Origin: a virus
Length of the DNA: 64,000 nt
Reading direction: 5' to 3' (one strand)
IMG/VR virus record: IMGVR_UViG_3300036828_000771
Location: 1-64,000 of that record
Translations under genes and position numbers: made by a program
Notes under the pieces: generated by a model
Database searches by the model: none
The model's input: only the letters and a program-made list of their open reading frames with translations
What the model was told of the DNA's origin: nothing
Shown: in pieces, positions 3,949 to 63,341 of the stretch
Layout of the letters: every line of letters starts with the position of its first letter
How positions within the stretch are numbered: position 1 is the stretch's first letter

Positions 3949-4945
3949 AGCCGAGGCGGCACGAACTGCGCTAGGCGCGGCGCTCAAGGCTGGTCTCGAC
4001 ACCCTCGATCTCAACCAGACGATCACGTTCACGCTTTACCAGCGGGTCGTGCTGCCGCTCGACGGCTACGTGTTCTGGGTGAAGTCGACGATCTCGAACA
4101 TCGCGACGACGACGCCGCCGTCGATGGATGTGATGGGCGCGGTGCACTACATCTCCGACCTGCGGCAGGACGAGGACAACAGCGTTTCCAACAATCGGGT
4201 GGTCTTCACGGCCGAGGACCCGGTGCAGAACTTCAATCTCACTGCGCCGAACGAACTCTATATCGGCGACTTCGACGGCGTCCGCTTCTCCTTCTCATCG
4301 CGCGGCGCGTACTTCCAGCAGTCGAACCTGCACCACTACATCGGCATGGGTTACTCGTCGTGGATGATGACGCAGATTATCGACGACATCAGCGACTTGC
4401 CGCCGACCACCGATCTGCTCGTGAGCAACAGCCTGTCGATCTGGCTGTCGCTGAGCGGCTACAATCCGGCGTGGCACGTCGACATTCCGATGCCGCCGAT
4501 CCCGCTGTTCCCGTCGTTCTTGAGTCCGCTGAACATCCTGCCGCCCTACGGCACCATCCACATCGACCCCGAACAGACGACGGCCTATCAGGCGGTGCCG
4601 TTGCGGTCCTCGGTGCTCGACCACTCGCAGCTTACGCACGACCGGGTGATCGTGACGCTGTACGGCTGCGACAACAGGACGGCGCTCGATTTCCTCGATG
4701 CGACGCTCCAGTACATGCTCGACACCGATCACATGGGCCTCGTCGGCGTGCCGCCTATCGTGCGCGACGACAAGAAGACGACGACCGAGGCGCTGATCCT
4801 CGCGCAGAAGAAGCGGATCATCTTCGAGGTCAGCTACTACCAAGGCACCGCGCGCAACATCGCCCGCCAGTTGATCGAGAAGGCGCTCGTCGGCCTGTGG
4901 GTGCAGGACAGCTTCATCGGCAGCGTCCCGATCCAGATTCGCTGA
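3932..4945 (+). CDS. Head-closure/tail-completion protein
   Basis: 337 aa, VVLPLDGYVFWV motif, between neck and sheath genes. Confidence 0.55.
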   Translation: MATVNEAEAARTALGAALKAGLDTLDLNQTITFTLYQRVVLPLDGYVFWVKSTISNIATTTPPSMDVMGAVHYISDLRQDEDNSVSNNRVVFTAEDPVQNFNLTAPNELYIGDFDGVRFSFSSRGAYFQQSNLHHYIGMGYSSWMMTQIIDDISDLPPTTDLLVSNSLSIWLSLSGYNPAWHVDIPMPPIPLFPSFLSPLNILPPYGTIHIDPEQTTAYQAVPLRSSVLDHSQLTHDRVIVTLYGCDNRTALDFLDATLQYMLDTDHMGLVGVPPIVRDDKKTTTEALILAQKKRIIFEVSYYQGTARNIARQLIEKALVGLWVQDSFIGSVPIQIR

Positions 4946-6942: not shown

Positions 6943-7538
6943 GTCTGATGTTGGTGAATCCACACTTTGCGCAGCGCGCGATTCAGCGACGGTATGGCGC
7001 TGCGCATCGAGAGACTTGCCGGTCGGCGTGTGCTCGATGGCGTGCGAGGAATCCCGGCTATCAGGTCGAATGGAACCGGGCGAACTCCGAGCGCCATCGT
7101 GCCATCGTGAAGAAGACCAACGCGAAGTCCGAGACCAAGCAAAGGCGGCGGCGCTGGCTTGAGGACAACCCAGACAAGGTGGTGGCCCAGCGCGAACGCC
7201 ACCTCGTCCTGCATCCACGGTCGGCTGCTGATCGGATGATGCGATACAGAGAGAAGCACCCCGAAACGTCACGCAACGACAGCGCTCGCCGACGTTCGCG
7301 GAAGAAGGGGCTGAAACTGTCCGAGGGCCTGATCGAGTTGCTGTTATCTGAACAAGGGAGTCAGTGCCCGTACTGCCCAGCAGATATCAGCAAGCGTTAC
7401 GCCATCGACCACTACATGCCTCTGTCCCGAGGCGGCCTGCACGTCGACGAGAACATTCAACTGACCTGTCGGCCGTGCAACGCCCGCAAGGCCTCGAAGC
7501 ATCCGGCCGAGTTCCTGATGGAGATGACCCATGGCTGA
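6939..7538 (+). CDS. Freestanding HNH homing endonuclease
   Basis: CPYC...IDHYMPLSRGGLH..ENIQLTCRPCNARK; basic repeated N-terminus; overlaps both neighbours. Confidence 0.85.
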   Translation: MSLMLVNPHFAQRAIQRRYGAAHRETCRSACARWRARNPGYQVEWNRANSERHRAIVKKTNAKSETKQRRRRWLEDNPDKVVAQRERHLVLHPRSAADRMMRYREKHPETSRNDSARRRSRKKGLKLSEGLIELLLSEQGSQCPYCPADISKRYAIDHYMPLSRGGLHVDENIQLTCRPCNARKASKHPAEFLMEMTHG

Positions 7539-28277: not shown

Positions 28278-28811
28278 CTACGCGACCTTGGCGACAGCCA
28301 GAGCCTGCTTCGCCTCGGTCAGTGCCCGGCGCAGCTTCGCCTTGATCTCGGCGAAGTAGGCGCAGCGCACTTCGGCGCGCACCAGCATCAGCGACCGGCC
28401 GAGGTTGTTCGCGCCGACACCGTTGCAGACTCCCCAGCAGGTGTCGTTCCACGTATTGCCCTCGATCAGGTGGGCCTCGTCGGTCGACATCAGCTTGCCA
28501 GCCAGTTCGGCATCGCTGAACTTGATGCGCAGCAGGTCGATCATGATGTCGTACTTCACGGTCTCCCAGTCGCGGCGCAATGCGATGCCGAAGCGGTCGA
28601 ACTGCCGGGCCTGTCCCAGCCACTTCGCCTGACCCGGCGTTTCGGCGAGGCGGATTTTCTGCTGGTAGTTCGTGTCGTGCGTCTTCGCCGCCTGATAGGC
28701 GTGCTCGGTCGTTGGCCAAAGCTGGCCCCGCCATTCGATGCGGTGCAGGTAGAAGTTCGACAGCCACTCGTAGGGCGGGGCGTCGAAGTAATCGATGGTC
28801 TTCTCAGTCAT
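28278..28811 (-). CDS. NADAR (YbiA-like) family protein
   Basis: WLSNFY, PTTEHAYQAAK, LRRDWE.VK, KF, LIEGNTWNDTCWG, G.NNLGRSLM.VR. Confidence 0.9.
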   Translation of the reverse strand: MTEKTIDYFDAPPYEWLSNFYLHRIEWRGQLWPTTEHAYQAAKTHDTNYQQKIRLAETPGQAKWLGQARQFDRFGIALRRDWETVKYDIMIDLLRIKFSDAELAGKLMSTDEAHLIEGNTWNDTCWGVCNGVGANNLGRSLMLVRAEVRCAYFAEIKAKLRRALTEAKQALAVAKVA

Positions 28812-30460: not shown

Positions 30461-30850
30461 TCATGGCGACACTATCCCCAGCGCCATCGCGAAGAACCAT
30501 CCGACCGGCAGGAGCACGATCAGGCTCACCGCGATGAGAGCAAGGCTGCCGGTGCTGGCGGCGGGCGACGGCGGGACCACCACCGCCTTGCCACCAGAAG
30601 CCGCCACGGCGGCCAGAAGCTCGCGGTGCTGTTGGTCGCGCTTGGCGACCTCGGCGTTGGTCTCACCCGAGCACGCCCAGATGAAGGCGATGAACCAGCC
30701 GATCAGAGTCCAGCCGAGGCACAGGTTGACGAAGAACACGCCAGTCGTGCCGTTGGCCTTGCCGCGCACCGTCGCGATGACGGTCGGCAGGAAGTAGCAG
30801 GCCAGCGCGATCAGAATCAGGATCAGGCCGCCCGTTGCGTCGGCGTTCAT
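30461..30850 (-). CDS. Superinfection immunity (T4 Imm-like) membrane protein
   Basis: YFLPTVIA..R...FFVNLCLGWTLIGWFIAFIWA; ATGA-coupled start. Confidence 0.85.
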   Translation of the reverse strand: MNADATGGLILILIALACYFLPTVIATVRGKANGTTGVFFVNLCLGWTLIGWFIAFIWACSGETNAEVAKRDQQHRELLAAVAASGGKAVVVPPSPAASTGSLALIAVSLIVLLPVGWFFAMALGIVSP

Positions 30851-31014
30851 GGCCGGCTCCACGCGCTCAGGTCGGCCGGCAAGTTGAGCGAGTCAAACCC
30901 CGCAGGCATGCTGCCATGGTAGCTGCTGATAGCAGCCGCCAGCGCCACGACAGCGACAGCGACAGCAAGAAAGGTCAGAAACGCGCGCCCTTCTACGCGC
31001 TTGTTGTAAAACAC
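30847..31014 (-). CDS. Small membrane/exported protein
   Basis: GTG after GGAGAG RBS; hydrophobic FLTFLAVAVAVVALAAAI. Confidence 0.45.
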   Translation of the reverse strand: MFYNKRVEGRAFLTFLAVAVAVVALAAAISSYHGSMPAGFDSLNLPADLSAWSRP

Positions 31015-31038: not shown

Positions 31039-31584
31039 GGGCGGAATTGCCCTTCGACTCCGTGCGAGCACCGCACGGTTCAGCGCCTCGACCGAGCCTT
31101 GCCCGAAGTCCGGGTGCGGTTCGGTCGCGCGGTCCTGACGTGCCCGAATCTCGGCCATCACTTCGTCGATCTTTTTCACGCAGCGGCCTGCCAAGCGTCG
31201 GCAAGGTTGCTGCTCGATGGCGCGAGAATGTTGTACCAGTCACACTCATAGACACGCTCGCGCTCAGCGTCGGGGTCGACGCCGGGCGGCATGTAGCCCG
31301 GGCGGCCCGTCTCTCTGGCGACCACCAGACAGTTGAGCAGCGGCAGGTCGTTCTGCTGGCAGTATTGCAGGATGCAGCCAAGGATTTCGTCGAGCACGCC
31401 ATGGCTGCGGCGGTGGAACATCAACTCGCCCAGTTGGGCGTAGGTGATGGTCTGTCGGTTCATGCCGTGTCCAATGAGGATTTGCCACGCCTGAACGGCC
31501 CGCACGGGCCGCACGCTGCTCGGATTGAAACGTACACTCATCTCGACACTCCCTTTCTATCGGGCGGAATTGCCCTTCGACTCC
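31039..31584. repeat. 23-bp direct repeat (31039-31061 and 31562-31584)
   Basis: GGGCGGAATTGCCCTTCGACTCC identical twice; related copy at 32942-32955. Confidence 0.9.
31176..31541 (-). CDS. Hypothetical protein, probable winged-helix
   Basis: RQTITYAQLG..LG.I..YC...DLPLL..LVV...TG.PG; RBS AAGGGAG. Confidence 0.6.
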   Translation of the reverse strand: MSVRFNPSSVRPVRAVQAWQILIGHGMNRQTITYAQLGELMFHRRSHGVLDEILGCILQYCQQNDLPLLNCLVVARETGRPGYMPPGVDPDAERERVYECDWYNILAPSSSNLADAWQAAA

Positions 31585-31621
31585 TAAAGCCCGCGCCAGC
31601 TTTTCAGGGCTGGGCGGGCTG
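31576..31621 (-). promoter_or_regulatory. Bulged-hairpin leader element D
   Basis: AGCCCGC-CCAGC-loop-GCTGG-C-GCGGGCT-TT-AGGAGTC. Confidence 0.55.
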
Positions 31622-31644
31622 GTAGGGCGGGGGAACCAACTTGC

Positions 31645-31801
31645 CTTCAATGCAGACGGTCTGGCAGAAGACCGCCGCGTGACTCGGTTTGACCATGGCC
31701 TCGTCCAACGACTAGGGGAGGGAAACGAGGCTTAGGCAGCAGTGGCTTGGTGTTCCGGGCTGCCCCCGGGCAACCCTGAAAGCGTCACGCCCCTCCTGAA
31801 G
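31645..31801. ncRNA. Candidate structured RNA
   Basis: Nested stems GCGTGAC/GTCACGC, GGGTTGCC/GGCAGCCC, GCCTCGT/ACGAGGC; no credible ORF. Confidence 0.35.
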
Positions 31802-31835
31802 AAGTGACCCGGGGCCGTAACCCCGGGCCGTCGCG

Positions 31836-32924
31836 TTACTGGGCCAGTTCGAGGAGCTTGCCGCCCTCCTTCTCCAGTTCGACGCGGGCGTCCTGATGGA
31901 CGATGCCGCGCGCCTTGGCCGTCACTGCCGTGGCCGCATCGAACAGGGTCTCAATCGGGCGACCCTCTTCGAGCTTGTGGACCTCCTGAAGCTGGGCAGC
32001 CATGCCGCGCGAGAAGCGCTTGGCCAGCCACTCATCGACGTTGTCGATGCGCTTTTCCTTGGCGGCCTCGATAGCCTTCACGACGTTCGTCGCCGAGGAG
32101 TTCGCGTAGCTCGTCAGAGCCGGGGCCATCTGCTCCAGCCACTTGTCGGGAGCGCTCACCGTGTGGCGGATGGTGATCTGCTTGTACTCGGCAGCACCCC
32201 ACACGATGCGGTTCATGCAGACGTAGTCGAACAGGAAGGTCGCCACGCCGAAGGTCTTGTCGCCGACCTCCGAGTTCCACACGAAGAACCCGCGAGCCAT
32301 CGCGCCGGTCTCGCCGTTGCGGCGATTCGGAATCTCGATGCGGTTCTGCTCGTCGGCGAGGAACACGAACATATCGCGGTCGCCGGCATAGAGCGTGGTG
32401 TTGGACTTGTTGACCGTCACGGCCTTGCCGAACTCGCCCGGCACCTTGAACCGGCCGGTGACGCCATCGCCCACCGCCTGAATCAGGCCGCGCACGATGC
32501 CAGAGTTCCAGATGCGGCCATAGTTCGGGCCGGTGGCGCAGCGCAGGATGTTGCTGCCGTTCTGCTGGAGCAGGACGCCAACGTCTTCCACGTCGCGCTT
32601 GTACTGGAGTCCGTAGTTGATGCAGTCGGCGGCCAGAGGGGCCGGCAACGTGCGGAGGTAGCCGCCCGGCGACTTCGCGAGGCTCGCGAGTTGGCCGAAG
32701 GCGTGGTTGGTGGGAGCGTAGGCGTGCCCGTTGGGGCCGACTACCATGAGCGCCTTGCTGTCGCTCGGGACAGGCTGCAACTCGATCTTGCGGCTCGACA
32801 CCGTCAGGGCGCGAGACTGCTCACGGACCCGGTCGAAATGCTCCTGCATCTCGGGAAGGGACGTAAACCGCTCGTCATCCGGTCGGCTCGACCACTGGTG
32901 GCTGGCTTGCATTAACGTAGACAA
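31836..32924 (-). CDS. DUF932/DUF945-family protein
   Basis: QWSSRPDDERFTSL, YGRIWN, LYAGDRDMFVFLAD, RGFFVWNSEVG, VCMNRIVWG. Confidence 0.8.
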   Translation of the reverse strand: MSTLMQASHQWSSRPDDERFTSLPEMQEHFDRVREQSRALTVSSRKIELQPVPSDSKALMVVGPNGHAYAPTNHAFGQLASLAKSPGGYLRTLPAPLAADCINYGLQYKRDVEDVGVLLQQNGSNILRCATGPNYGRIWNSGIVRGLIQAVGDGVTGRFKVPGEFGKAVTVNKSNTTLYAGDRDMFVFLADEQNRIEIPNRRNGETGAMARGFFVWNSEVGDKTFGVATFLFDYVCMNRIVWGAAEYKQITIRHTVSAPDKWLEQMAPALTSYANSSATNVVKAIEAAKEKRIDNVDEWLAKRFSRGMAAQLQEVHKLEEGRPIETLFDAATAVTAKARGIVHQDARVELEKEGGKLLELAQ

Positions 32925-32961
32925 CTGATCTTCTCCTTGGTGGGCGGAAATGCCCGTTTCG

Positions 32962-33016
32962 ATGTCCTCTATTTAGGGTGTCCACGTCCTGATTGCAAGC
33001 CCTAATTTTAGGGCCG
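32962..33016 (-). promoter_or_regulatory. RpoD-type promoter flanked by two operators
   Basis: CTTGCA-N17-CTAAAT (32971-32999); palindromes at 32962-32981 and 32997-33016. Confidence 0.7.
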
Positions 33017-33029
33017 GTTTTACGGGGTT

Positions 33030-33449
33030 TCACTCGCCTCGCAGGTCGACCGACGCGGGTTCCTGTTGCGGCTCCTCGTCGTCGAGCGCCGACTGGAACG
33101 ACTGGCCGATGTATTCCTTGATGAAGTTGCGGTCGCGCCCGGAGACCGAAAGATGGAAGCAAAACGCCAGACTGGGCAGCACCGTCACGGTGTGCTCGGT
33201 CCAGCCGTCGTACATGCCGTTCTCGTCCATGTGATGGAACGAGGTCGTGAAGACGAGCTTGTCCCCATTGGACTTGTCGAGATCGATCTTGGTGCCGGCG
33301 TCGAAGCCTCCGCCGCTCGGCAGGTGATCGCGCACCAGCTTGAGCAGCCGCTCCTCGTGGCGCTCTCGCCATTCCGCCTTGTCGGTATCGATGCAGGCCT
33401 TGCGGGCCATCACCAGACTGGCCAACGCTTGGTAAAGTTTCCTTCTCAT
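33030..33449 (-). CDS. Conserved-looking phage hypothetical protein
   Basis: LPSGGGFDAGT..FHHMDENGMYDGWTEH. Confidence 0.6.
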   Translation of the reverse strand: MRRKLYQALASLVMARKACIDTDKAEWRERHEERLLKLVRDHLPSGGGFDAGTKIDLDKSNGDKLVFTTSFHHMDENGMYDGWTEHTVTVLPSLAFCFHLSVSGRDRNFIKEYIGQSFQSALDDEEPQQEPASVDLRGE

Positions 33450-33727
33450 GGTGTCGCCTCATCCTCGGCATAGGCCGATTCGATGCGCTGGCCTGTGTCG
33501 GAACAGAACAGCGCCGGGTCCTCCCAGTTGATGTCGACGCCGGCCGGCAGCCAGCCGTCGTTGTCGTGGTCGCGGATCGATTCGAGGATCAGCCGGCGGT
33601 TCGTCTTCGCTGACTCGAAGCTCAGCGCCTCGCCGTCAGCCATCACGAAGTAGCGCGGGTAGCCACCGGGCCACGCCCATTTGCCGTAGCGCATGTCGCG
33701 CCGGAAGTCGGAGATGGTGTAGGTCAT
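33446..33727 (-). CDS. Conserved-looking phage hypothetical protein
   Basis: AWPGGYP..DGEAL..INWED..LFC..IESAY. Confidence 0.65.
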   Translation of the reverse strand: MTYTISDFRRDMRYGKWAWPGGYPRYFVMADGEALSFESAKTNRRLILESIRDHDNDGWLPAGVDINWEDPALFCSDTGQRIESAYAEDEATP

Positions 33728-34008
33728 GCGTCCCTCCGGGCCGTCCGGGCATCGACCTGAGCGCTGATGTTCAGGGCGATAGCCAGAAGCTCGCTGCGCA
33801 CTTTCTCCAGCGCGGCGATGCGCGCGGCGTGCTGGGCGAAGGCCGTCGAGGCGGCCTCGCTGCTGATCGGGTAGTAGTCCCGACCGTGGCAGGTGATGGC
33901 CTTCGTGAAGTCGATGGCCGTCTGGACGGCATCCATGGCGAGCATGTATTCGGCCAGCAGTTGCGGACCATGGGTGCCGTTCAGGTTGATGCGGGGGAAT
34001 TGGGTCAT
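33724..34008 (-). CDS. Hypothetical protein
   Basis: INLNGT..HGRDYY motif; RBS GAGGT. Confidence 0.6.
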   Translation of the reverse strand: MTQFPRINLNGTHGPQLLAEYMLAMDAVQTAIDFTKAITCHGRDYYPISSEAASTAFAQHAARIAALEKVRSELLAIALNISAQVDARTARRDA

Positions 34009-34011
34009 GGC

Positions 34012-34635
34012 TTAGACCTCGCCCGGATCGGCGTTGATCGCTTCGTCGCGCGCGTCGGAGAGCTTCGACTCGTACTCTTCGTCGGCTTCGCGCTGGCGCT
34101 CGGCGCAGTCGCTCTGGTAGTCCTCCCACAGGAGGTACGCCCATTCGATCAGGTCGCCCAGTTCGGCCGGCTGCGGCGTCGCATCGTTGTCGAGGAACTC
34201 CTCAAACGCCGGATGCTCCGCTTCCTCGCGCGTGACTTCATCGAGGTTCTCGATGTCGCTCGCCCATGATTCGCAGTTGTCGATGCGCTCCTGCAACATC
34301 TCGCCGGTCGCGCCCTGCTGGAGTCCTTCCGGCATATTGTCCAGCGACGACTGGCACTCCTCGCCAAGCTCGCGGATGCGGCCGGCGATGTCCTGAAGCG
34401 AGTCGCTCAAGGTTTCGTCGAGCGCCAGTTCGGCGATCTCCTCTTGGAAGCCGCGCCACTGCGACTTGAAGTTTGAACGCGTCAATTGGCTGGGCTTGGG
34501 GTACGTCTTGCTGACGACCTTGGTCCCCGGGCCAGTCTGATTCTTGAACGTCCACCAGAAATAGCTGTCGCCCGGCACGACGCCGATGCTCGGTATGGCC
34601 TTGCGGGCCTTCTCGACTTTGTTGACTCTCGGCAT
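34012..34635 (-). CDS. Hypothetical protein with acidic C-terminus
   Basis: GDSYFWW..PKPSQLT..LDNMPEGLQ. Confidence 0.6.
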   Translation of the reverse strand: MPRVNKVEKARKAIPSIGVVPGDSYFWWTFKNQTGPGTKVVSKTYPKPSQLTRSNFKSQWRGFQEEIAELALDETLSDSLQDIAGRIRELGEECQSSLDNMPEGLQQGATGEMLQERIDNCESWASDIENLDEVTREEAEHPAFEEFLDNDATPQPAELGDLIEWAYLLWEDYQSDCAERQREADEEYESKLSDARDEAINADPGEV

Positions 34636-34659
34636 TGATGAAAATTCCTGTTTCCTTTG

Positions 34660-34702
34660 CTGCCCTAGATGTAGGACATGCAATGTCCTAAATCAAGCCC
34701 TG
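34660..34702 (-). promoter_or_regulatory. RpoD-type promoter with operators
   Basis: CTTGAT-N17-CTACAT (34669-34697); CTGCCCTAGATGTAGGACAT at 34660-34679 and a partial site at 34683. Confidence 0.7.
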
Positions 34703-34852
34703 CAACCGTTCTAGGGTGCCGAGGTAGTTAGCGGGCCTGAAGCCGCCGCGATCAATCCACACCGCGAGATCGAGCAAGCCTAGCGTCGCTTCCTCGAAGT
34801 CGCGGTCGGAGATCGCTCGCTCGATGCGCTCCATGCAGGCGTTGGGGTCCAT
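34688..34852 (-). CDS. Small hypothetical protein (54 aa, not in ORF track)
   Basis: MDPNAC...L..W..RGGF.P; TAATG coupling to upstream gene. Confidence 0.6.
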   Translation of the reverse strand: MDPNACMERIERAISDRDFEEATLGLLDLAVWIDRGGFRPANYLGTLERLQGLI

Positions 34853-35466
34853 TACTTCCACCTCTTGAGCCAGCTAGGGCCGAACTGGTTGCGGACTTGC
34901 CGCAGCAGGTGGCCGTTCGGCTCGCGCGCGTCGGCACCGTTCATCCAGCAGGTGATCAGGTGCTCTTTCCAGCCGCCACTTTTGGTCGCGTATTTGACGG
35001 CGAAGGCCTGCACGGCTTGAAGCTGCTCCGGGGTCGGGGTCTGGCTCAGGTCGGTGTCGTTGGCGTTCACGATCATCGCCATGGAGTAGTTGCCGAACGG
35101 CTTGAACTGCTCGACGCCCTCGTAGACGTACAGCCGGCGCTTGACGATCTTGCCATCCACCTCGGTGGTGATGGTCTTGTCCGTGCGGGCCTTGATCGGG
35201 AAGTGCGCGAAAAGCTGACTGTCGCCAGTGAAGCTGTCGCTGTAGGTCTTGCCGACCTCGAAGCGTTTGACGGTCGGCGGGTTCACCATTTCTTCCGGCG
35301 CATTGATGCCGTAGCCGCCGCGATGCACCTTGTCCGGGTCGACCTTCTCGCGCTCGGCGATCCAGTCCTCGGCTTGCTTCACGGTGTCGACGCGGGCGAC
35401 GACCACCAGCCGGTCGCCCGGTTTGGTCGCGCTCTCTTCGTCGGTGATAGTCACTTGCTTGCGCAT
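34852..35466 (-). CDS. Hypothetical protein, apparently multi-module
   Basis: RBS GAAAGGA; FEVGKTY and LRQVRNQFGPSWL segments. Confidence 0.6.
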   Translation of the reverse strand: MRKQVTITDEESATKPGDRLVVVARVDTVKQAEDWIAEREKVDPDKVHRGGYGINAPEEMVNPPTVKRFEVGKTYSDSFTGDSQLFAHFPIKARTDKTITTEVDGKIVKRRLYVYEGVEQFKPFGNYSMAMIVNANDTDLSQTPTPEQLQAVQAFAVKYATKSGGWKEHLITCWMNGADAREPNGHLLRQVRNQFGPSWLKRWK

Positions 35467-35472
35467 GTCATT

Positions 35473-35524
35473 GTCCTTTCGACGCCTCGACCCCGCACCG
35501 GGTTCTCAGGCCCGGGCGGGGTTG
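35473..35524 (-). promoter_or_regulatory. Bulged-hairpin leader element A
   Basis: CAACCCCGC-CCGGG-loop-CCCGG-T-GCGGGG-TCG-AGGCGTC-GAAAGGAC. Confidence 0.65.
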
Positions 35525-35527
35525 GCT

Positions 35528-35593
35528 TCAGATGTGGATCACTGCGTCGAGCAGGATCATCAGCAGGGTGAGGACGAGCGCGGCCATCAGCAT
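35528..35593 (-). CDS. 21-aa hydrophobic peptide
   Basis: AAGGAG-N4-ATG; MLMAALVLTLLMILLDAVIHI*. Confidence 0.45.
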   Translation of the reverse strand: MLMAALVLTLLMILLDAVIHI

Positions 35594-35601
35594 GGGACTC
35601 C

Positions 35602-35805
35602 TTACTGCCGGATCGTCTCGACGAAGGTGGCGATACGGTCGCCCAGCACTTCGTCGGTGACGCCCTCGGCGATGGCCTTGTGGCCCTCGCGGAAGACCTT
35701 GCCGATGTCCATCACACTGATCTGGACACCGCAGCAGCGGGTTCTGTAGGCCTCCTCGATTCGCAGGTCGTCGCGCTTGGCCTGAGCCTTGGTCGGTTTA
35801 CGCAT
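35602..35805 (-). CDS. Hypothetical protein
   Basis: RBS GAGGAG. Confidence 0.55.
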   Translation of the reverse strand: MRKPTKAQAKRDDLRIEEAYRTRCCGVQISVMDIGKVFREGHKAIAEGVTDEVLGDRIATFVETIRQ

Positions 35806-36004
35806 TGGCCGACTCCTCGTTGAACTTGCGACCCGTGCCTTCCCAGTAGGTCGCCGTCACTTGGAAACCCTCGCTCTCGGGGAACCGATGGCGGATCGAG
35901 GCGAGCACGTCCAAGACGTGAGCGCGGTCGGTGCCGCTGCGGGGCGCGGTAGCGAAAAAGTGTCGGCCGTTCAGGCTGACGTTGATCTCGACGTGGCTTT
36001 GCAT
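35798..36004 (-). CDS. Hypothetical protein
   Basis: EINVSLNGRHFFAT..FPESEGF.V; RBS GAAAGGA. Confidence 0.6.
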   Translation of the reverse strand: MQSHVEINVSLNGRHFFATAPRSGTDRAHVLDVLASIRHRFPESEGFQVTATYWEGTGRKFNEESANA

Positions 36005-36010
36005 GGTGTA

Positions 36011-36061
36011 GTCCTTTCGACTCCTCGACCCCGCTCACGGGTCCTAGCCGTGGCGGGGTTG
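36011..36061 (-). promoter_or_regulatory. Bulged-hairpin leader element B
   Basis: CAACCCCGC-CACGG-loop-CCGTG-A-GCGGGG-TCG-AGGAGTC-GAAAGGAC. Confidence 0.65.
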
Positions 36062-36067
36062 TTGGGG

Positions 36068-36277
36068 TTACTGCGCGTCGACCTGAGCCTGAAGCTCCTC
36101 GACCTTGGCCTCGGCTTCCTGCCAGAGCATCACGATGCTCGACAGGCTGGGCCGGTGGCCGGTCTCGGTCTTGTACCGGGCGATGAAGTCGAACGCGGCT
36201 TGCGCCTTGCTGACCTGCGAGACCACGTTGAAGGCCTCGACCGCTGCCACGATTTTGTCGTTCACTTGATTGACCAT
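36068..36277 (-). CDS. Hypothetical protein
   Basis: ORF between elements C and B; exact start uncertain. Confidence 0.5.
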   Translation of the reverse strand: MVNQVNDKIVAAVEAFNVVSQVSKAQAAFDFIARYKTETGHRPSLSSIVMLWQEAEAKVEELQAQVDAQ

Positions 36278-36295
36278 CCTTTCGTTGTTGCTACT

Positions 36296-36339
36296 GACTC
36301 CTTGACCCCGCTCAGCGGTGTCATGCGCTGGCGGGGTTG
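36296..36339 (-). promoter_or_regulatory. Bulged-hairpin leader element C
   Basis: CAACCCCGC-CAGCG-loop-CGCTG-A-GCGGGG-TCA-AGGAGTC. Confidence 0.65.
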
Positions 36340-36494
36340 AGGGTCGGACAGGAGAGGCTGGAGCAGGCGGGGCTTTTCGCGTTTCCAAATGTTAAGGCGA
36401 AGTAGCCGGTCGGCTTTTCTCCTGATCTCTCACTGGGAGGGACCGTGCCGGGGTCGCCGGCCGCTTCGTCCCTCCCCACTAAGATGGGGATGGC

Positions 36495-36561
36495 ATGCCC
36501 TAAATCAAGGGCATGTGGATAACCTTTCCTGCCGTTTGCACATGCCCTGCATTTAGGGCAC
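36495..36561. promoter_or_regulatory. Pair of 20-bp palindromic operators
   Basis: ATGCCCTAAATCAAGGGCAT (36495-36514) and ATGCCCTGCATTTAGGGCAC (36542-36561). Confidence 0.75.
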
Positions 36562-37078
36562 GGGCCAGCCCGCGCTCCCGGGCACGTAGCTTGCGCAGCG
36601 CCGTCGCTGCGCGCTTGGCCTTGGTCTCCCAGCGCTTGATGGATGCCCGGGTGGCGTCGAGCTTGGCCGAGCGGGCCTCGACCGGGCTGGGCTTGGGCGG
36701 CGCAGCCTTGACCGGCTTGGGCAGGTGCCAGCCCTTGGCCAGCACATGCTGAATCATCTCCAGTTCGAGGGCGGCGTGCCGGGCGCTGTGCGCCTTGAAC
36801 CACCTCTTGCCGTGCCGCCGCTCGAACACCCAATGCGAGGCGTCGTGCACCATGCGCGGCAGACCGTTGCCTCGGGCGTACTGGGTGTCGGTGCCCTTCG
36901 GCGCAGCCCACGCGCGGTTCACGCGGTGACTCCACCATGGCCCTCGCAGGTGCTTGCCGCCGAATTTCTTCAGCAGCTTGTCGAAGATCGGCTTGGCCTC
37001 GGCGGCGGTGACGGGAGGCAACTTGACGTTGCCCCACGCATCGTTCACGTCGCTGTAGGAGGTGAGCGATTCCATCAC
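36500..37078 (-). CDS. Hypothetical basic protein
   Basis: MVHDASH..H..H motif; RWETKAKRA.TALRKL tail. Confidence 0.6.
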   Translation of the reverse strand: MMESLTSYSDVNDAWGNVKLPPVTAAEAKPIFDKLLKKFGGKHLRGPWWSHRVNRAWAAPKGTDTQYARGNGLPRMVHDASHWVFERRHGKRWFKAHSARHAALELEMIQHVLAKGWHLPKPVKAAPPKPSPVEARSAKLDATRASIKRWETKAKRAATALRKLRARERGLARALNAGHVQTAGKVIHMPLI

Positions 37079-37407
37079 GACACCTTCCTGCCCTTGGCGA
37101 TCAGCAGTCGCCAGTCGGCCATGCTGATCGTGACCTCATGCGTGCCGTCGCGGATGTGCATCTTGGCCGAGCCGTCTTCGGCTTCCGCCGCCCACACGAG
37201 GCGCTTGCCTGAGCCGAGCTTGGCCAGAGCGCTGGCCTTGGTGTTCGTGATGAACACTTCCCACCGCTCGGCATCGGCCCATCGCTCGCCTTCCGGCCGT
37301 GCGGCCTTCGGGAGCTTCTTCCATCTCCGCTCCTTCACCTTCTTCGCTGGCCCGCTGCGGATCAGGAAGGTGGGGATCGTGAGATCGTCGTTCGATTGAA
37401 ATAGCAA
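37075..37407 (-). CDS. Hypothetical protein
   Basis: TTG after GGAG; DLTIPTFLIR. Confidence 0.55.
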   Translation of the reverse strand: MLFQSNDDLTIPTFLIRSGPAKKVKERRWKKLPKAARPEGERWADAERWEVFITNTKASALAKLGSGKRLVWAAEAEDGSAKMHIRDGTHEVTISMADWRLLIAKGRKVS

Positions 37408-38298: not shown

Positions 38299-38745
38299 AT
38301 GCCAACCGAAATGCTCAGTCCCCATTTCGCCCTCAGCGAGTTCACGATCAGCGAGACCGCAGGCCGTCACGGTCTCGACAATACGCCGCCGCCCGAGATC
38401 GTCGAGGAACTGCGCAAGATGGCGGCGCTGATGGAGAGGGTGCGCACCTTGCTCGGCGACAAGCCGATCCAGATCACCAGCGGCTACCGTGCGCCTGCGG
38501 TCAACGCTGCGGTCGGCTCCAGTGCGTTCTCGCACCACTGCAAGGGACAGGCCGTCGATTTCATCTGCCCGGGATTCGGGACGCCGCGTGAGATCGCCGA
38601 GGCGTTGCTGCCGCACCTGCACACCCTCGAAATCGATCAACTGATCTGGGAGTTCGGATCGTGGGTCCATCTCAGCCACCATGACACGCCCCGCAAGATG
38701 GCGCTGACGATTGATCATGGTGGCACCCGGTCAGGGATCGGCTGA
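38299..38745 (+). CDS. Peptidase M15A (D-Ala-D-Ala type) endolysin
   Basis: LSPHFALSEF, PIQITSGYR..VN.AVG...SHH..GQAVD, DQLIWE..WVHLS; RBS GGAGG. Confidence 0.9.
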   Translation: MPTEMLSPHFALSEFTISETAGRHGLDNTPPPEIVEELRKMAALMERVRTLLGDKPIQITSGYRAPAVNAAVGSSAFSHHCKGQAVDFICPGFGTPREIAEALLPHLHTLEIDQLIWEFGSWVHLSHHDTPRKMALTIDHGGTRSGIG

Positions 38746-41196: not shown

Positions 41197-41312
41197 ATCG
41201 GCCCGACCTAACCGCATCGGGGTTCTTTCTACCCCTTAGCGGGCTACTGGGCCGGGCCGACTCGTCCACCGGGGCCGTTGTCAGGTCCCCGGTAGCTAGT
41301 GACGGGTGTACC
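41197..41312. ncRNA. Candidate structured RNA/leader
   Basis: Hairpins TGACGGGT/ACCCGTCA and ACCGGGG/CCCCGGT, plus TCGGCCCG/CGGGCCGA enclosing CCGC/GCGG and GGGGT/ACCCC. Confidence 0.35.
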
Positions 41313-55680: not shown

Positions 55681-56019
55681 ATGTCCGAGTTTCATCGCGC
55701 ATTGGAGCTTTTAGCGGACCTCGGACACCCGTTGTTCATGCGCATGAACGCCGAACACCGCGCCGTGCCGATGGCCATCGGCATCGCCAAGACCGTCCTC
55801 GACAACATCGACACGCTGCGCCGCCCGGCCGTCAAGCGCTCGATCAGATCGCTGACCAACTCCTACCAGTATCTCGATGCGCTCAAGGCCGAGGGAGCCA
55901 AGCGCCACGATCTCGCCGGCAATCCGGTCGGGCCGGTCTCGTCTGACCATCAGACTGCCGCGCGCGAGCGGCTCAAGATCATGCACCGGAGGAAGCACCC
56001 ACCCCAACCCAAGGGATAG
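55681..56019 (+). CDS. ProQ/FinO-domain RNA chaperone
   Basis: PMAIGI..T.S..YL..L..GAKR.DLAG.P.G.V...H...A; RBS GAGGGG. Confidence 0.8.
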   Translation: MSEFHRALELLADLGHPLFMRMNAEHRAVPMAIGIAKTVLDNIDTLRRPAVKRSIRSLTNSYQYLDALKAEGAKRHDLAGNPVGPVSSDHQTAARERLKIMHRRKHPPQPKG

Positions 56020-59993: not shown

Positions 59994-60250
59994 CTTGAAA
60001 GTCGTCGGCTGGCTCTGTGCCATCGCCTTTGCCCTGTGGGGATTCGCCATGCTCGACAGCCAGACCGCCTGCCAGTTGGCCTGCCAATGAACAGCGAAGC
60101 CCTGCGCGGCAGCACCAAGGTCGACGCTGGCGGACACATGCCCCACTTCGGCGACACCGAAAGGTTCGATGAACCAATGCTCGCCGGCCTGCTGTTCTCC
60201 GCCATCGCCCTCATCGTCATCGCCCTCATCGCCCTGCGGAGAAAACACCG

Positions 60251-60415: not shown

Positions 60416-60675
60416 CCCAACCCATCACCCGCAACGACGGCCAGCCGCTCCGCCTCAGCTTCTACGAAGCCATGCTCTACACCGGACTCGACCGAGCCCT
60501 CCTCAGCTTCATCCTCATCAACCATCTCAGCCTCAACGCCGTCGAACGCCGCAGCATCGCCATCGAAACCCTCGACCGCGCCACCCTCATCGCCCGCCGA
60601 TATCCCACCGGACCACCCCACAAATCCCAACCCGCAAGGCCCCTCCATCCGCGACAGATCGCACGTCGCGCTTGA
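60412..60675 (+). CDS. Hypothetical protein, possible excisionase-like HTH
   Basis: LSFYEAMLYTGLDR..L. Confidence 0.4.
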   Translation: MTQPITRNDGQPLRLSFYEAMLYTGLDRALLSFILINHLSLNAVERRSIAIETLDRATLIARRYPTGPPHKSQPARPLHPRQIARRA

Positions 60676-60798
60676 CAGGCACCCCGATGTTGTGGCTGGA
60701 ATCCGCCCTGTCGCAAACTGTGGAACTGTCGGGGAGGCTCCAATGAGGGGTTCGTAGCACAAAGCGCACATTGCACTGTCCGGCAGGCGTGTACGGAG

Positions 60799-60849: not shown

Positions 60850-61386
60850 ATGTTCGCGTGGCATGTCGCTACCACAAGACCATTCTCCGAACTCATCGCA
60901 GAGAGACACCTCGAACAGCAACGCTTCCAAGCGTTCAACCCCAAGTGCCTCGATATGCGAATCGTCCGGGGTCGCCGTGTCACCGTCGAAAAGCCCTACA
61001 TCCCCGGTTATATCTTCATCAATTTCGACGACACCGCCGAAAACTGGCAGTCCATCAACTACACGCGCGGCATCATCTCCCTCATCTACGCCTCGCCCGA
61101 GCATCCCGCCGTCGTCAAACCCGACGCCATGCAAATCCTCATCGACCGATGCTCCGGTGGCCAGTACATCACCGAGCACGAGATCGACCAGCACATCGCC
61201 AAGCTCGTCCCCATCGCCGCTACCGTCCGCATCACCAGCGGCCCGTTCGACGGCCTCCACGGCATCGTCAAGTGGTCCCACCACCACAGAGTCGCCGTCC
61301 TCATGCGCTTCCTCGGCGTCGTCCGCGAAATTGACATCTCCGCCAAGGCTGTAGAGGTTATCTCCCCTCTGCCACCACGATCCTAA
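60850..61386 (+). CDS. NusG/RfaH-family transcription antiterminator
   Basis: W.V..T, F.P, PYIPGYIFI.F, W..IN.TRGI..L; KOW VRITSGPFDGLHG. Confidence 0.85.
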   Translation: MFAWHVATTRPFSELIAERHLEQQRFQAFNPKCLDMRIVRGRRVTVEKPYIPGYIFINFDDTAENWQSINYTRGIISLIYASPEHPAVVKPDAMQILIDRCSGGQYITEHEIDQHIAKLVPIAATVRITSGPFDGLHGIVKWSHHHRVAVLMRFLGVVREIDISAKAVEVISPLPPRS

Positions 61387-61405: not shown

Positions 61406-61870
61406 ATGGCTCAGACCAGCGTTGTCCCGCTGCCCAAGCCTCGACCCGGTCCACCGAAAGGCGTCCGCTACGGCGGCAGGCAGAAAGGCACACCGAACAA
61501 GCGCACACCCGAGATGGTGCTGCTCGCGCGGCAGTACGGACCAGAGGTGCTCGCCAAGTTCATCAACCTGCTGCGCAAAAGCGACGACGAGGACATTGTC
61601 CTAAGAGCAGGGCAGGAGATTCTCAACCGAGGCTTCGGCCGACCTCCAACCGCTGTTGCTTTGACCGGCCCACAAGGCGAGCCGCTCGACTTCACGAGGC
61701 TCGATGATGGACAACTCCAACGGCTTCTCGCCCACCTCGAACAGTTTGTCCTTGGAACGGGCGAGGAGAGTCATCCCATACTTGAAGGCCGAGCTACAGA
61801 AGCGCGAACGATTGGCGAGGGAACGGCAGGACCTCGCGAACCGACTGGAGGAGATTCGCGAGAGGTGTGA
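61406..61870 (+). CDS. Terminase small subunit
   Basis: GGRQKGTPNKRT..LAR..EILNRGFGRP..LTG..G.P. Confidence 0.75.
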   Translation: MAQTSVVPLPKPRPGPPKGVRYGGRQKGTPNKRTPEMVLLARQYGPEVLAKFINLLRKSDDEDIVLRAGQEILNRGFGRPPTAVALTGPQGEPLDFTRLDDGQLQRLLAHLEQFVLGTGEESHPILEGRATEARTIGEGTAGPREPTGGDSREV

Positions 61871-63341
61871 GAACTTCGTCGGCTTCATCAAGGAAGCGTG
61901 GAACAAGCTCGAACCGACCACCAACTACAAGCCTTCGTTCCACCACGACGCCATCGGCGATCACCTGCACGCCGTCAATCTCGGCCAGATACAGCGCCTC
62001 GTCATCAACCAGCCACCCGGCACGATGAAGTCGCTCACCGTCTCCGTGCTGTTGCAGGCATGGGAATGGGGACCGCGCAAAGCACCCGGCTTACGCTACC
62101 TCACTACCTCGTATCGCGAAGACTGGGCGCGGCGAGACTCGCGCAAGAGCCGCGATCTCATCCAGAGCGAATGGTATCGCACGCTCTACCCAGAGATCGT
62201 GCTGATCCGCGACGGCGAGACCGACTTCGAGAACACCTTCCTCGGCACCCGCAAAGCGGTGCCCTTCAAGTCCCTCACCGCCGGGCGCGGCAATCGTGTC
62301 GTGGTCGACGATCCTCACTCCACCGAACAGGCTGAGTCGGATGCTGACCGCGAAGTAGCGACTCGTGTCTTTCGTGAATCGGTGACTAGTCGACTCAACG
62401 ATCCCGAAAAGGACTGCATCATCATCTGCATGCACCGACTGCATCCAGACGATGTGTGCGGGGTCATCGAACGGCTCGGCCTGCCCTACACCAAGCTCGT
62501 GCTGCCCATGGAGTACAGCCGCAGCCTCGAAGTGCGCACGCCATGGTTCAAGGACCCGCGCACCAAGGAGAACGAGCTTCTCTGCCCCAACCGCATCAAC
62601 CGCGAGACCGTCGAGCAGAACAAGATCGAACTCGGCGACCACGCCTACGCCACCCAGTACCAGCAGCAGGCCAAGGCCCGCGAGGGCAGTTTCTTCTTCA
62701 ACCCCGAGCACTTCCTCGTCGAGGTCACGCGCGAGGACGGCTCGAAGTTCTTCGCGCCGGCAGCAACGCCCACGATCTGCGATTCGGTGTTCGCCGTGAT
62801 CGACACCGCGAGCAAGGTCGGCAAGGCGCGCGACGGCACAGGCTGCGGCTGGTACGCCTACACCAAGTATCCCGAGGAGCAACTGCGGCTCTTGGACTGG
62901 GACCTCATCCAGATCGAGGCGGCGGTGCTGGAGCACTGGCTGCCCGGCGTGCTGGAGCGCTGCGAGGAACTGGCCGCGCTCACCCACGCGCGCTACGGCC
63001 ACACCGGCGCGTGGATCGAGGACAAGGACTCGGGCATCGTGCTGTTGCAGCAGGCAGCCAATCGCGACCTGCTCGCTCAGCCGATTGAGACCAAGCTCAC
63101 CGGCATGGGCAAGGATGCCCGGGCGCTGTACTGCTCGGGCGATATCTACAAGGGTAAATTCAAAGTGTGTCAGGAGGCTTACGACAAGACGACCAGCTAT
63201 CATGGTCGCACGCGCAATCACTTCTGGTGGCAGGCCACCAACTTCCGCATCGGCCACGGCACGCCGACCGACGAAGACGAAATGTTCGACGTTTTGTGCT
63301 ATGGAGCCGCCATTGCATTCGGGAACCCAGATCAACTCTGA
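61704..63341 (+). CDS. Terminase large subunit
   Basis: RLVINQPPGTMKS, VVDDP, MHRLH.DD, YQQ, nuclease IDTASK, IEDKDSG, DEMFD; exact start uncertain. Confidence 0.9.
   Translation: MMDNSNGFSPTSNSLSLERARRVIPYLKAELQKRERLARERQDLANRLEEIRERCENFVGFIKEAWNKLEPTTNYKPSFHHDAIGDHLHAVNLGQIQRLVINQPPGTMKSLTVSVLLQAWEWGPRKAPGLRYLTTSYREDWARRDSRKSRDLIQSEWYRTLYPEIVLIRDGETDFENTFLGTRKAVPFKSLTAGRGNRVVVDDPHSTEQAESDADREVATRVFRESVTSRLNDPEKDCIIICMHRLHPDDVCGVIERLGLPYTKLVLPMEYSRSLEVRTPWFKDPRTKENELLCPNRINRETVEQNKIELGDHAYATQYQQQAKAREGSFFFNPEHFLVEVTREDGSKFFAPAATPTICDSVFAVIDTASKVGKARDGTGCGWYAYTKYPEEQLRLLDWDLIQIEAAVLEHWLPGVLERCEELAALTHARYGHTGAWIEDKDSGIVLLQQAANRDLLAQPIETKLTGMGKDARALYCSGDIYKGKFKVCQEAYDKTTSYHGRTRNHFWWQATNFRIGHGTPTDEDEMFDVLCYGAAIAFGNPDQL

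Follow-up and report, generated by a model that had tools for sequence, protein, structure and literature searches.

The early region of an uncultured phage carries four copies of a bulged hairpin followed on its 3′ side by a conserved linear box, and these elements are members of an undescribed family of sense-strand hairpin-plus-3′-box signals that punctuate early polycistronic operons. They lie on the minus strand of the window, by which we mean the whole 64,000-nt stretch analysed here (positions 1 to 64,000 of IMG/VR virus record IMGVR_UViG_3300036828_000771). The record is a complete-looking genome of 77,589 bp with 63% G+C, recovered from a soil metagenome, and its nearest terminases belong to Paracoccus, Rhizobium and Erythrobacter phages at 36-45% identity. 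Below, G000 denotes this phage and other G-numbers denote related contigs that carry the elements, or relatives used for comparison. The phages bearing the family are uncultured soil phages, with hosts probably among the Alphaproteobacteria.

The four copies share a common anatomy. Read 5′ to 3′, a C-rich, G-poor run ending in C-A-R leads into a bulged stem, which is capped by a loop of 7-8 nt (in the family mostly CCUGARAA) and followed directly by a box with the consensus YYRRGGNGUC and then RRRRG. The 13-pair stem has two outer covarying pairs, an invariant CCCGC/GCGGG segment, a one-base bulge on the 3′ side and an upper stem of 5 bp, where the 12th pair is C-G or G-C and the 13th is A-U, G-C or G.U. 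This is the layout that had been proposed from the sequence-only reading of the region, with the amendments that one more covarying pair is present at each end of the stem and that the box is longer than the AGG(A/C)GTC first described. Element A (36291-36337; hairpin 36305-36337, 3′ box 36291-36304) has the inner stem CAGCG/CGCTG, the loop CATGACAC and a bulged A, and scores 66.5 bits with the covariance model described below, with a fold z-score of -6.6. It lies within a long untranslated leader after a 191-aa gene (36500-37075), 41 nt ahead of a 65-aa gene (36068-36265). Element B (36014-36059; hairpin 36028-36059, 3′ box 36014-36027; 66.2 bits) has the inner stem CACGG/CCGTG, the 7-nt loop CTAGGAC and a bulged A; 10 nt separate it from the stop of the 65-aa gene upstream and 25 nt from the ATG of a 68-aa gene downstream, where the purine tail of its box, GAAAGGA, doubles as the ribosome-binding site (RBS) of that gene. 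Element C (35476-35522; hairpin 35490-35522, 3′ box 35476-35489; 73.3 bits), with the inner stem CCGGG/CCCGG, the loop CCTGAGAA and a bulged T, has its end 25 nt upstream of the ATG of a 204-aa gene (34852-35466). Element D (31574-31620; hairpin 31588-31620, 3′ box 31574-31587; 72.1 bits) stands apart from these, 217 nt past a DUF932-like gene (31836-32924) and 48 nt ahead of a 121-aa gene (31176-31541), and carries an outer G-C pair, the inner stem CCAGC/GCTGG, the loop CCTGAAAA and a bulged C. The upper stem thus differs in each of the four copies and yet is fully paired (5/5) every time, just as the sequence-only reading had it. Downstream of the stem, all four copies have 1-3 pyrimidines and then RGG, with no U-tract, so that the earlier statement that they are not terminators by that mark also holds.

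Within the genome the elements are sharply delimited. The strict pattern CCCGC-N5-N7/8-N5-N-GCGGG-N4-AGGNGTC has exactly four matches in the 77.6-kb genome, all on the minus strand, with none on the other strand and none for a reversed control over the whole genome. A covariance model built on 11 copies, the kind of scan that the sequence-only reading had suggested, finds only the same four places, at 66-73 bits, whereas the reverse strand scores 10-20 bits, 45-55 bits lower. Compared with shuffled sequences, each of the four copies folds as drawn (z -3.0 to -6.6). A degenerate and doubtful candidate for a fifth copy is found at 41259-41293 on the minus strand, as a 9-bp hairpin with a 5′ bulged A in which the motif CCTGACAA covers the top two pairs and the loop, with GGACGAGTC next; its stems differ from those of the family, the covariance model is silent on it, and relatives have no copy at that place.

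The hairpin is under selection to pair, and the evidence comes from the wider family. Two independent pattern scans of IMG/VR were made, one with the stems and box fixed and the loop free, the other with the stems and loop fixed and the box free, and each returned its unfixed part conserved. The loops recovered without a loop requirement were CCTGA(A/G/C)AA, CGTGACAA and ATTGAGCC, and the boxes recovered without a box requirement were RGGNGTC, or GGGTGCC in a second group. The inner stem is fully paired in 16 of 26 pattern matches in viral contigs; in bacterial genomes it is so in just 3 of the 120 matches listed, none of which has the flanks, and these matches look like chance. With about 20 further copies from a metagenome scan, the final model-based alignment comprises 48 distinct ones, drawn from about 25 contigs of phage or metagenome origin. 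Of the cells in this alignment 98.6% are paired, and both partners vary at 7 of the 12 pairs, which bears out the earlier argument from compensatory change. None of 500 shuffles attains the observed score, and sliding the partner strand reduces pairing to 28-53%. The outermost pair is A-U in 25 copies, G-C in 11 and G.U in 10, and because G.U is tolerated here, the strand that folds is the sense strand; beyond this 13th pair, pairing among the aligned copies is at chance level. The bulge keeps a fixed place (A in 20 copies, C in 18, U in 5 and G in 1), and the box, counted from the end of the stem, spans +1 to about +15, position +10 being Y and +11 R. Since all scans behind the collection demanded CCCGC/GCGGG, the constancy of this lower stem from phage to phage is in part a product of the search; the covariance model found no copies with another lower stem in the genomes that it was used to search. 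Each element is strand-specific and lies between genes, reading in their direction; its loop, lower stem, bulge position and box are conserved.

No described family accounts for these sequences, in keeping with the earlier suggestion of an undescribed cis-element. At gathering score Rfam 15 has no match in the window, and at E<=10 only noise falls on the elements (F6 sRNA at 16.4 bits against a threshold of 46, and mir-1789 at 14.6 against 88). A blastn search with the element gave no match in 50,697 GenBank phage records, and the element is absent from two cultured phages that share one gene with the region, Erythrobacter phage ZS04 and Synechococcus virus S-ESS1. When viral sequences were scanned by loop and box without the stems, the matches listed were chance matches only.

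How the elements are placed in other phages was surveyed for 26 copies in 14 related contigs, using crude gene calls. All 26 copies in assembled contigs are intergenic, typically 10-30 nt past a stop and 24-60 nt ahead of a start, and both called neighbours lie on the strand of the element in 21 of them, the remainder involving doubtful calls of small open reading frames (ORFs). The spacing from hairpin to start is constant at 24-25 nt in elements B and C and in several copies from different phages. Copies occur near the start of long co-directional early operons, in their hypervariable part. In clade I (G000, G003, G007, G011) there are 2-4 copies in each phage amid small, mostly unshared ORFs, in a stretch bounded by the conserved 191-aa gene (gene family F12) and a conserved 207-aa gene (34012-34635; gene family F5). 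One extra copy lies mid-operon after a DUF932-family gene in G000 and G007, the copy in G007 being at the position equivalent to element D and after its own DUF932-family gene. Among clade-I phages the elements are 83-89% identical and shared neighbour genes 70-75%, and the same hairpin subtype can stand beside unrelated genes in different phages. Element B, for example, matches a G007 copy at 89% over 56 nt although their neighbour genes are unrelated, and a subtype with the inner stem CACGG and the loop ATTGAGCC is present in G003, G011 and one metagenome contig. Clade II (G004, G005) has only about four protein families in common with G000, yet it carries the same elements. In G006, G010, G012, G014 and fragments, which make up a third group, the hairpin occurs once and is joined to a different box, GGGTGCC. 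Two further copies differ in their setting. The copy at G003:11894 has a sigma-70-like promoter just after it and therefore stands at the end of a transcription unit, and in the relative G008 the same hairpin is followed by a T-run (TTTT) in place of the box, like a true terminator.

The surroundings of the elements in G000 hold several other features. Just above element A, at 36340-36490 on the minus strand, is a long structured untranslated leader with a 9-bp stem (GGGAGGGAC...GTCCCTCCC) and no evident ORF. Just upstream of element C, at 35530-35592 on the same strand, is a 20-codon ORF with its own RBS that would encode the very hydrophobic peptide MLMAALVLTLLMILLDAVIHI. Only one hairpin of the early operon looks like a terminator, namely GGCCCGGGGTTACGGCCCCGGG with a tail rich in T and C at 31800-31830 (minus strand), which comes directly after the DUF932-like gene and precedes element D by about 190 nt. 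Canonical terminators are nearly absent from the genome. Palindromes of 20 bp with the form (A/G)TG(C/T)CC(C/T)-N6-(A/G)GG(A/G)CA(C/T) occur at promoter-like sites of the early region (read on the minus strand, 37500-37481, 37446-37426, 36561-36541, 36515-36494, 34700-34660 and 33015-32960), and two of them fall within the 3′-terminal part of the 191-aa gene, immediately before the leader of element A. Inside the early region a Peptidase_M15 (endolysin-like) gene (38299-38745) lies on the plus strand, opposite to the early genes, and the phage also has, on the minus strand, a NADAR-domain gene (28278-28811) and a superinfection-immunity (Imm_superinfect) gene (30461-30862). Few families are common to G000 and distant element-bearing phages, and those of the M15 and NADAR genes are two of them. 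Past the window, at 69300-75404 of the genome (plus strand), a 2034-aa ORF has weak PHROG matches only, to families of unknown function, and it is followed by a 645-aa protein with a NUDIX-like N-terminal region.

What the elements do can be approached through their anatomy and position. A strand-specific hairpin with an adjoining box of 10-15 nt, near the head of the operon, points to a signal that is read during transcription of the early operon, as do the G003:11894 copy at the end of a transcription unit and the T-run that replaces the box in G008. Because loop, bulge and box are all conserved, a terminator, a 3′ stabiliser or an RNase III substrate would be insufficient as an explanation. 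The reading that we tentatively favour, with less than even confidence, is that the elements are pause, attenuation or antitermination-type signals (nut- or ops-like) that act on the elongating polymerase or the nascent RNA. In this scheme, the GC-rich hairpin would form in the nascent RNA as the early operon is transcribed, leaving the polymerase positioned on the adjoining conserved box. The hairpin would then stabilise a pause or attenuation point at which a phage or host elongation factor could be loaded or become active (compare nut, put, ops and opsX), and the expression level of the accessory genes downstream would be set at the element. The put/boxB-like antitermination RNA put forward by the sequence-only reading is likewise a possibility. 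A broader version, possible though doubtful, is that the family represents a modular new class of phage elongation-control signal, in which a common nascent-RNA hairpin is combined with an exchangeable 3′ box and a factor would be loaded at several points of the early operon, each accessory cassette having its own transcription licence. Behind this version is the split between boxes, with RGGNGUC in phages that have an RfaH-like paralog and GGGUGCC where none was found.

That paralog is encoded in the window at 60850-61383 (plus strand). The protein, a specialised NusG paralog of full length, has an NGN and a KOW domain, and its gene directly precedes that of the large terminase (61704-63341). 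Its profile scores are 79.9 bits for RfaH, 73.2 for UpxY, 54.2 for LoaP and 44.6 for housekeeping NusG. When GenBank phage records were searched with it by tblastn, the sole matches (28% identity) were RfaH genes of Salmonella filed there in error. All phages with the RGGNGTC box have the paralog if their contig reaches this region (G000, G002, G004, G005, G007, G011, G016). It also occurs in G017, which has a single weak element copy with a diverged box, and it is one of the approximately four protein families common to clades I and II. In contrast, 38 other phage contigs of at least 34 kb that have the 207-aa neighbour gene F5 carry neither paralog nor element. Upstream of the paralog gene, at 60665-60715 (plus strand), is a conserved promoter-like CTTGACA-N17-GCT(C/G)(A/G)AATCC, also found in G007 and G011, which we take to resemble the Caulobacter-type sigma-70 consensus, a hint of an alphaproteobacterial host. 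The ATG of the paralog has no well-placed Shine-Dalgarno sequence in G000 or G007. That this RfaH/UpxY-like protein is itself the factor acting at the elements is a narrower form of the elongation-control reading, and an unlikely one.

A number of observations weigh against elongation control, and against a part for the paralog in particular. A conserved loop is not normally required of pause or terminator hairpins, and the box fits only in part what we take to be the E. coli consensus pause, with Y-1/R+1 fitting and G-10 not. Known nut or ops systems have fewer sites per operon than the 3-5 seen here. A search of the GGGTGCC-box phages G006, G010 and G012 turned up no NusG homolog; conversely, a paralog-bearing clade (G018, G020, G021) has no element, in G018 even with filters off, and a search of G018 for diverged copies returned coding-sequence look-alikes only. 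Co-occurrence of paralog and element is moreover confounded by shared descent, with few independent lineages. The elements occupy the minus strand at 31-36 kb, whereas the paralog gene, some 25 kb away at 60.8 kb, heads a packaging operon on the plus strand, and the covariance model finds no element copy on the plus strand of the genome, including the paralog leader. Lastly, the 10-mer GTGCGGTAGC is found 25-35 nt before the start codon of the paralog in G004 (~4250-4290), G005 (~60180-60215, minus strand) and G002 (~7075-7110, minus strand), with a small possible hairpin upstream of it in each of the three phages; the leader of the paralog in G000 has no exact copy of it. Within this 10-mer is GCGGTAGC, the canonical RfaH ops core, which every ops site of E. 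coli has as its sequence (PMC11685472) and from which the box of the hairpin elements differs. Most likely, to judge from these sequences, the paralog would load at the head of the packaging/late operon. As the paralog gene of these relatives has its own canonical ops core upstream, direct recruitment of the paralog at the hairpins is doubtful.

The alternatives to elongation control differ in which features of the element they explain. One is that the element is an RNA processing or stabilising site, where the early RNA is cut at or beside the hairpin by RNase III, another host RNase or a phage endoribonuclease, so that the upstream message would keep a protective 3′ hairpin and the downstream one a short 5′ leader starting in the box before the RBS. 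The intercistronic location, right past stops and just ahead of RBSs, and the recurrence of the 24-25 nt hairpin-to-start spacing across phages are what such sites would show, and the C-rich 5′ flank and the G-rich box could pair below an internal loop, some copies being clearly stabler than shuffled flanks. However, this putative lower stem has no preference for its own partner over that of other copies (p=0.12), pairing past the 13th pair is at chance level, and the proven helix measures just 12-13 bp. RNase III is indifferent to loops, yet the loop is conserved, and the G-rich box is unlike RNase E sites. The RNase III site entertained by the sequence-only reading is weakened by the same points, and we regard processing in general as possible and on the unlikely side. 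Conservation of the loop, together with a bulge of fixed place and A/C preference, would fit a translational or stability operator, in which a sequence-specific RNA-binding protein reads loop, bulge and box and switches the early accessory genes off or on as a group, in the manner of the coat-protein operators of MS2/PP7 or the targets of T4 RegA/RegB. The purine run of the box doubles as a Shine-Dalgarno sequence in tightly spaced copies, and many unrelated small genes lie downstream of elements. But many copies are 35-60 nt or more from the start codon, which then has a separate RBS, and the copy at G003:11894 precedes a promoter rather than a gene start. The roughly four families shared by the two main clades, moreover, include no candidate binding protein. 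G000 does encode a small ProQ/FinO-domain protein (55681-56019, plus strand; Pfam E 2.9e-15); its gene has no homolog by tblastn in 13 other element-bearing contigs and is thus confined to G000, which makes ProQ/FinO binding, another of the earlier suggestions, unlikely as the function of the family. Operator control overall has a low probability in our estimate.

Two further explanations ask less of a partner protein. The elements could be weak factor-dependent terminators or insulators between cassettes, without a U-tract and without a dedicated partner. CCCGC...GCGGG is a typical base of intrinsic terminators, the chance bacterial matches to the pattern are terminators, the G008 hairpin runs into TTTT, and canonical terminators are scarce in the phage. 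This explanation is nonetheless quite improbable, given that at most three pyrimidines follow the stem before the conserved G-rich box, and it leaves unexplained why loop and box are conserved across phages that share almost no genes. Alternatively, the elements could be mainly recombination joints, short conserved repeats at cassette borders through which small genes are swapped, with regulation secondary. The precedent is PeSL of T4-like phages, proposed as recombination joints (PMC4122927), and the sequence-only reading had drawn the same parallel. The hypervariable early setting beside unrelated genes supports that part of it: the elements occupy the most variable part of the early region, are better conserved than their neighbour genes, and recur as the same subtype next to unrelated genes. 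On the other hand, inner stems that differ within a genome would lower recombination between copies and not raise it, recombination has no need of pairing, bulge, strand specificity or G.U tolerance, and the homology blocks of relatives end at gene borders generally, not solely at elements. We consider joints as the main function very unlikely.

Other candidates were rejected outright. If the loop were the -35 and the box the -10 of a promoter for an extracytoplasmic function (ECF) or phage sigma factor, the RBS would be placed at the start site or before it, and the lack of any Sigma70_r2 match in the genome also counts against such a promoter. For an N4-type hairpin promoter there is no giant virion RNA polymerase gene, the 2034-aa ORF having no such match. 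Loop and box are complementary in many copies, but a pseudoknot between them is sterically implausible with the box one base after a 12-bp stem, and loop classes II and III do not fit it. Pairing in a putative mini-hairpin inside the box is at the level expected from column make-up. Lastly, TIGR-type guide arrays do not apply to a variable part that is self-complementary and just 5 bp long.

To our knowledge, few structured cis-regulatory elements of phages have been described, nearly all of them from coliphages (nut, put, RNase III sites and PeSL), and the present family adds a well-defined, covariation-supported element from uncultured soil phages. As lineages that otherwise share just about four gene families retain it, selection on it must be strong, with a probable tie to a host or phage factor. 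If the elements are indeed pause or antitermination signals, they would extend the ops/opsX/LoaP theme to phage early operons and provide a handle on how phages keep newly acquired small genes expressed. In practice, the covariance model can serve to mark early regions and cassette borders when metagenomic phage contigs are annotated.

Among known systems, the elements can be set beside signals that recruit specialised NusG paralogs. Bacteroides opsX sites are composites of about 40 bp, in which a pause hairpin ending 9-12 nt before the pause is combined with a non-template-strand motif, and they recruit NusG paralogs (PMC11685472), while LoaP requires a small hairpin in the leader RNA (PMC12691694). 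The elements are likewise composites of about 40-50 nt in transcribed non-coding DNA upstream of a start, with a nascent hairpin directly followed by a box of 10-15 nt, and their geometry appears compatible with the 9-12 nt spacing of opsX pauses. The phage also encodes an RfaH/UpxY-like paralog that co-occurs with the RGGNGTC box. In contrast to both ops and opsX, the consensus of the element box is YYRRGGNGTCRR, not GCGGTAGC (ops) or YGCGNAGCR (opsX), the loop is conserved, and several copies are present per operon, which is not the operon headed by the paralog. The lambdoid nut sites (boxA and boxB) and HK022 put resemble the elements in being early-operon sites in a leader or just past a stop, and in setting a conserved linear box beside a hairpin whose loop is rich in purines. 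A drawing with a GNRA tetraloop closed by a U-A pair suits most element loops, and the string GCCCUGAAAA, which we take to be part of lambda nutR boxB, recurs in element D. Here the differences are a bulged stem of 12-13 bp against the 5-bp stem of boxB, an 8-nt loop against its pentaloop, 3-5 copies, and a box on the 3′ side of the hairpin, unlike boxA, the 5′ flank being C-rich with no boxA-like consensus. No N-like antiterminator is recognised among the early small proteins by Pfam, NCBIfam or PHROG; the 110-aa first gene (37075-37407) has a basic N-terminal stretch and is confined to clade I.

Intrinsic terminators share the hairpin with the elements and differ in the U-tract, and the terminator scan does not report the elements. 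The RNase III sites of T7 are also related hairpins without U-tracts between consecutive early genes of one operon, whereas the proven helix of the element is shorter than two turns, its lower helix has no support from covariation and its loop is conserved. PeSL is similar in setting, as repeated intergenic stem-loop motifs that end at the next RBS in hyperplastic early regions with small ORFan genes (PMC2839356, PMC4122927). A PeSL, however, has a sigma-70 promoter between stem-loop and RBS, and a promoter scan finds none at the elements; the 24-25 nt from hairpin to start are too few to hold one, so that by this definition the element is not a PeSL. PeSL stems are also terminator-like with flanking A/T runs, and their sequences are unrelated to the elements. 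The SAS/ESAS of Cluster K mycobacteriophages consist of an inverted repeat with a variable spacer and then an asymmetric box just upstream of starts, and, like the elements, they precede a subset of genes in one orientation and are kept across subclusters beside different gene families (PMC3203893). Their box, GGGATAGGAGCCC, and 17-bp repeats are unrelated in sequence to the elements, and they occur in 11-19 copies genome-wide, in phages of actinobacterial hosts (PMC3203893). By architecture, then, the closest parallels of the hairpin-plus-box elements appear to be the opsX/nut-type elongation signals, PeSL and SAS/ESAS.

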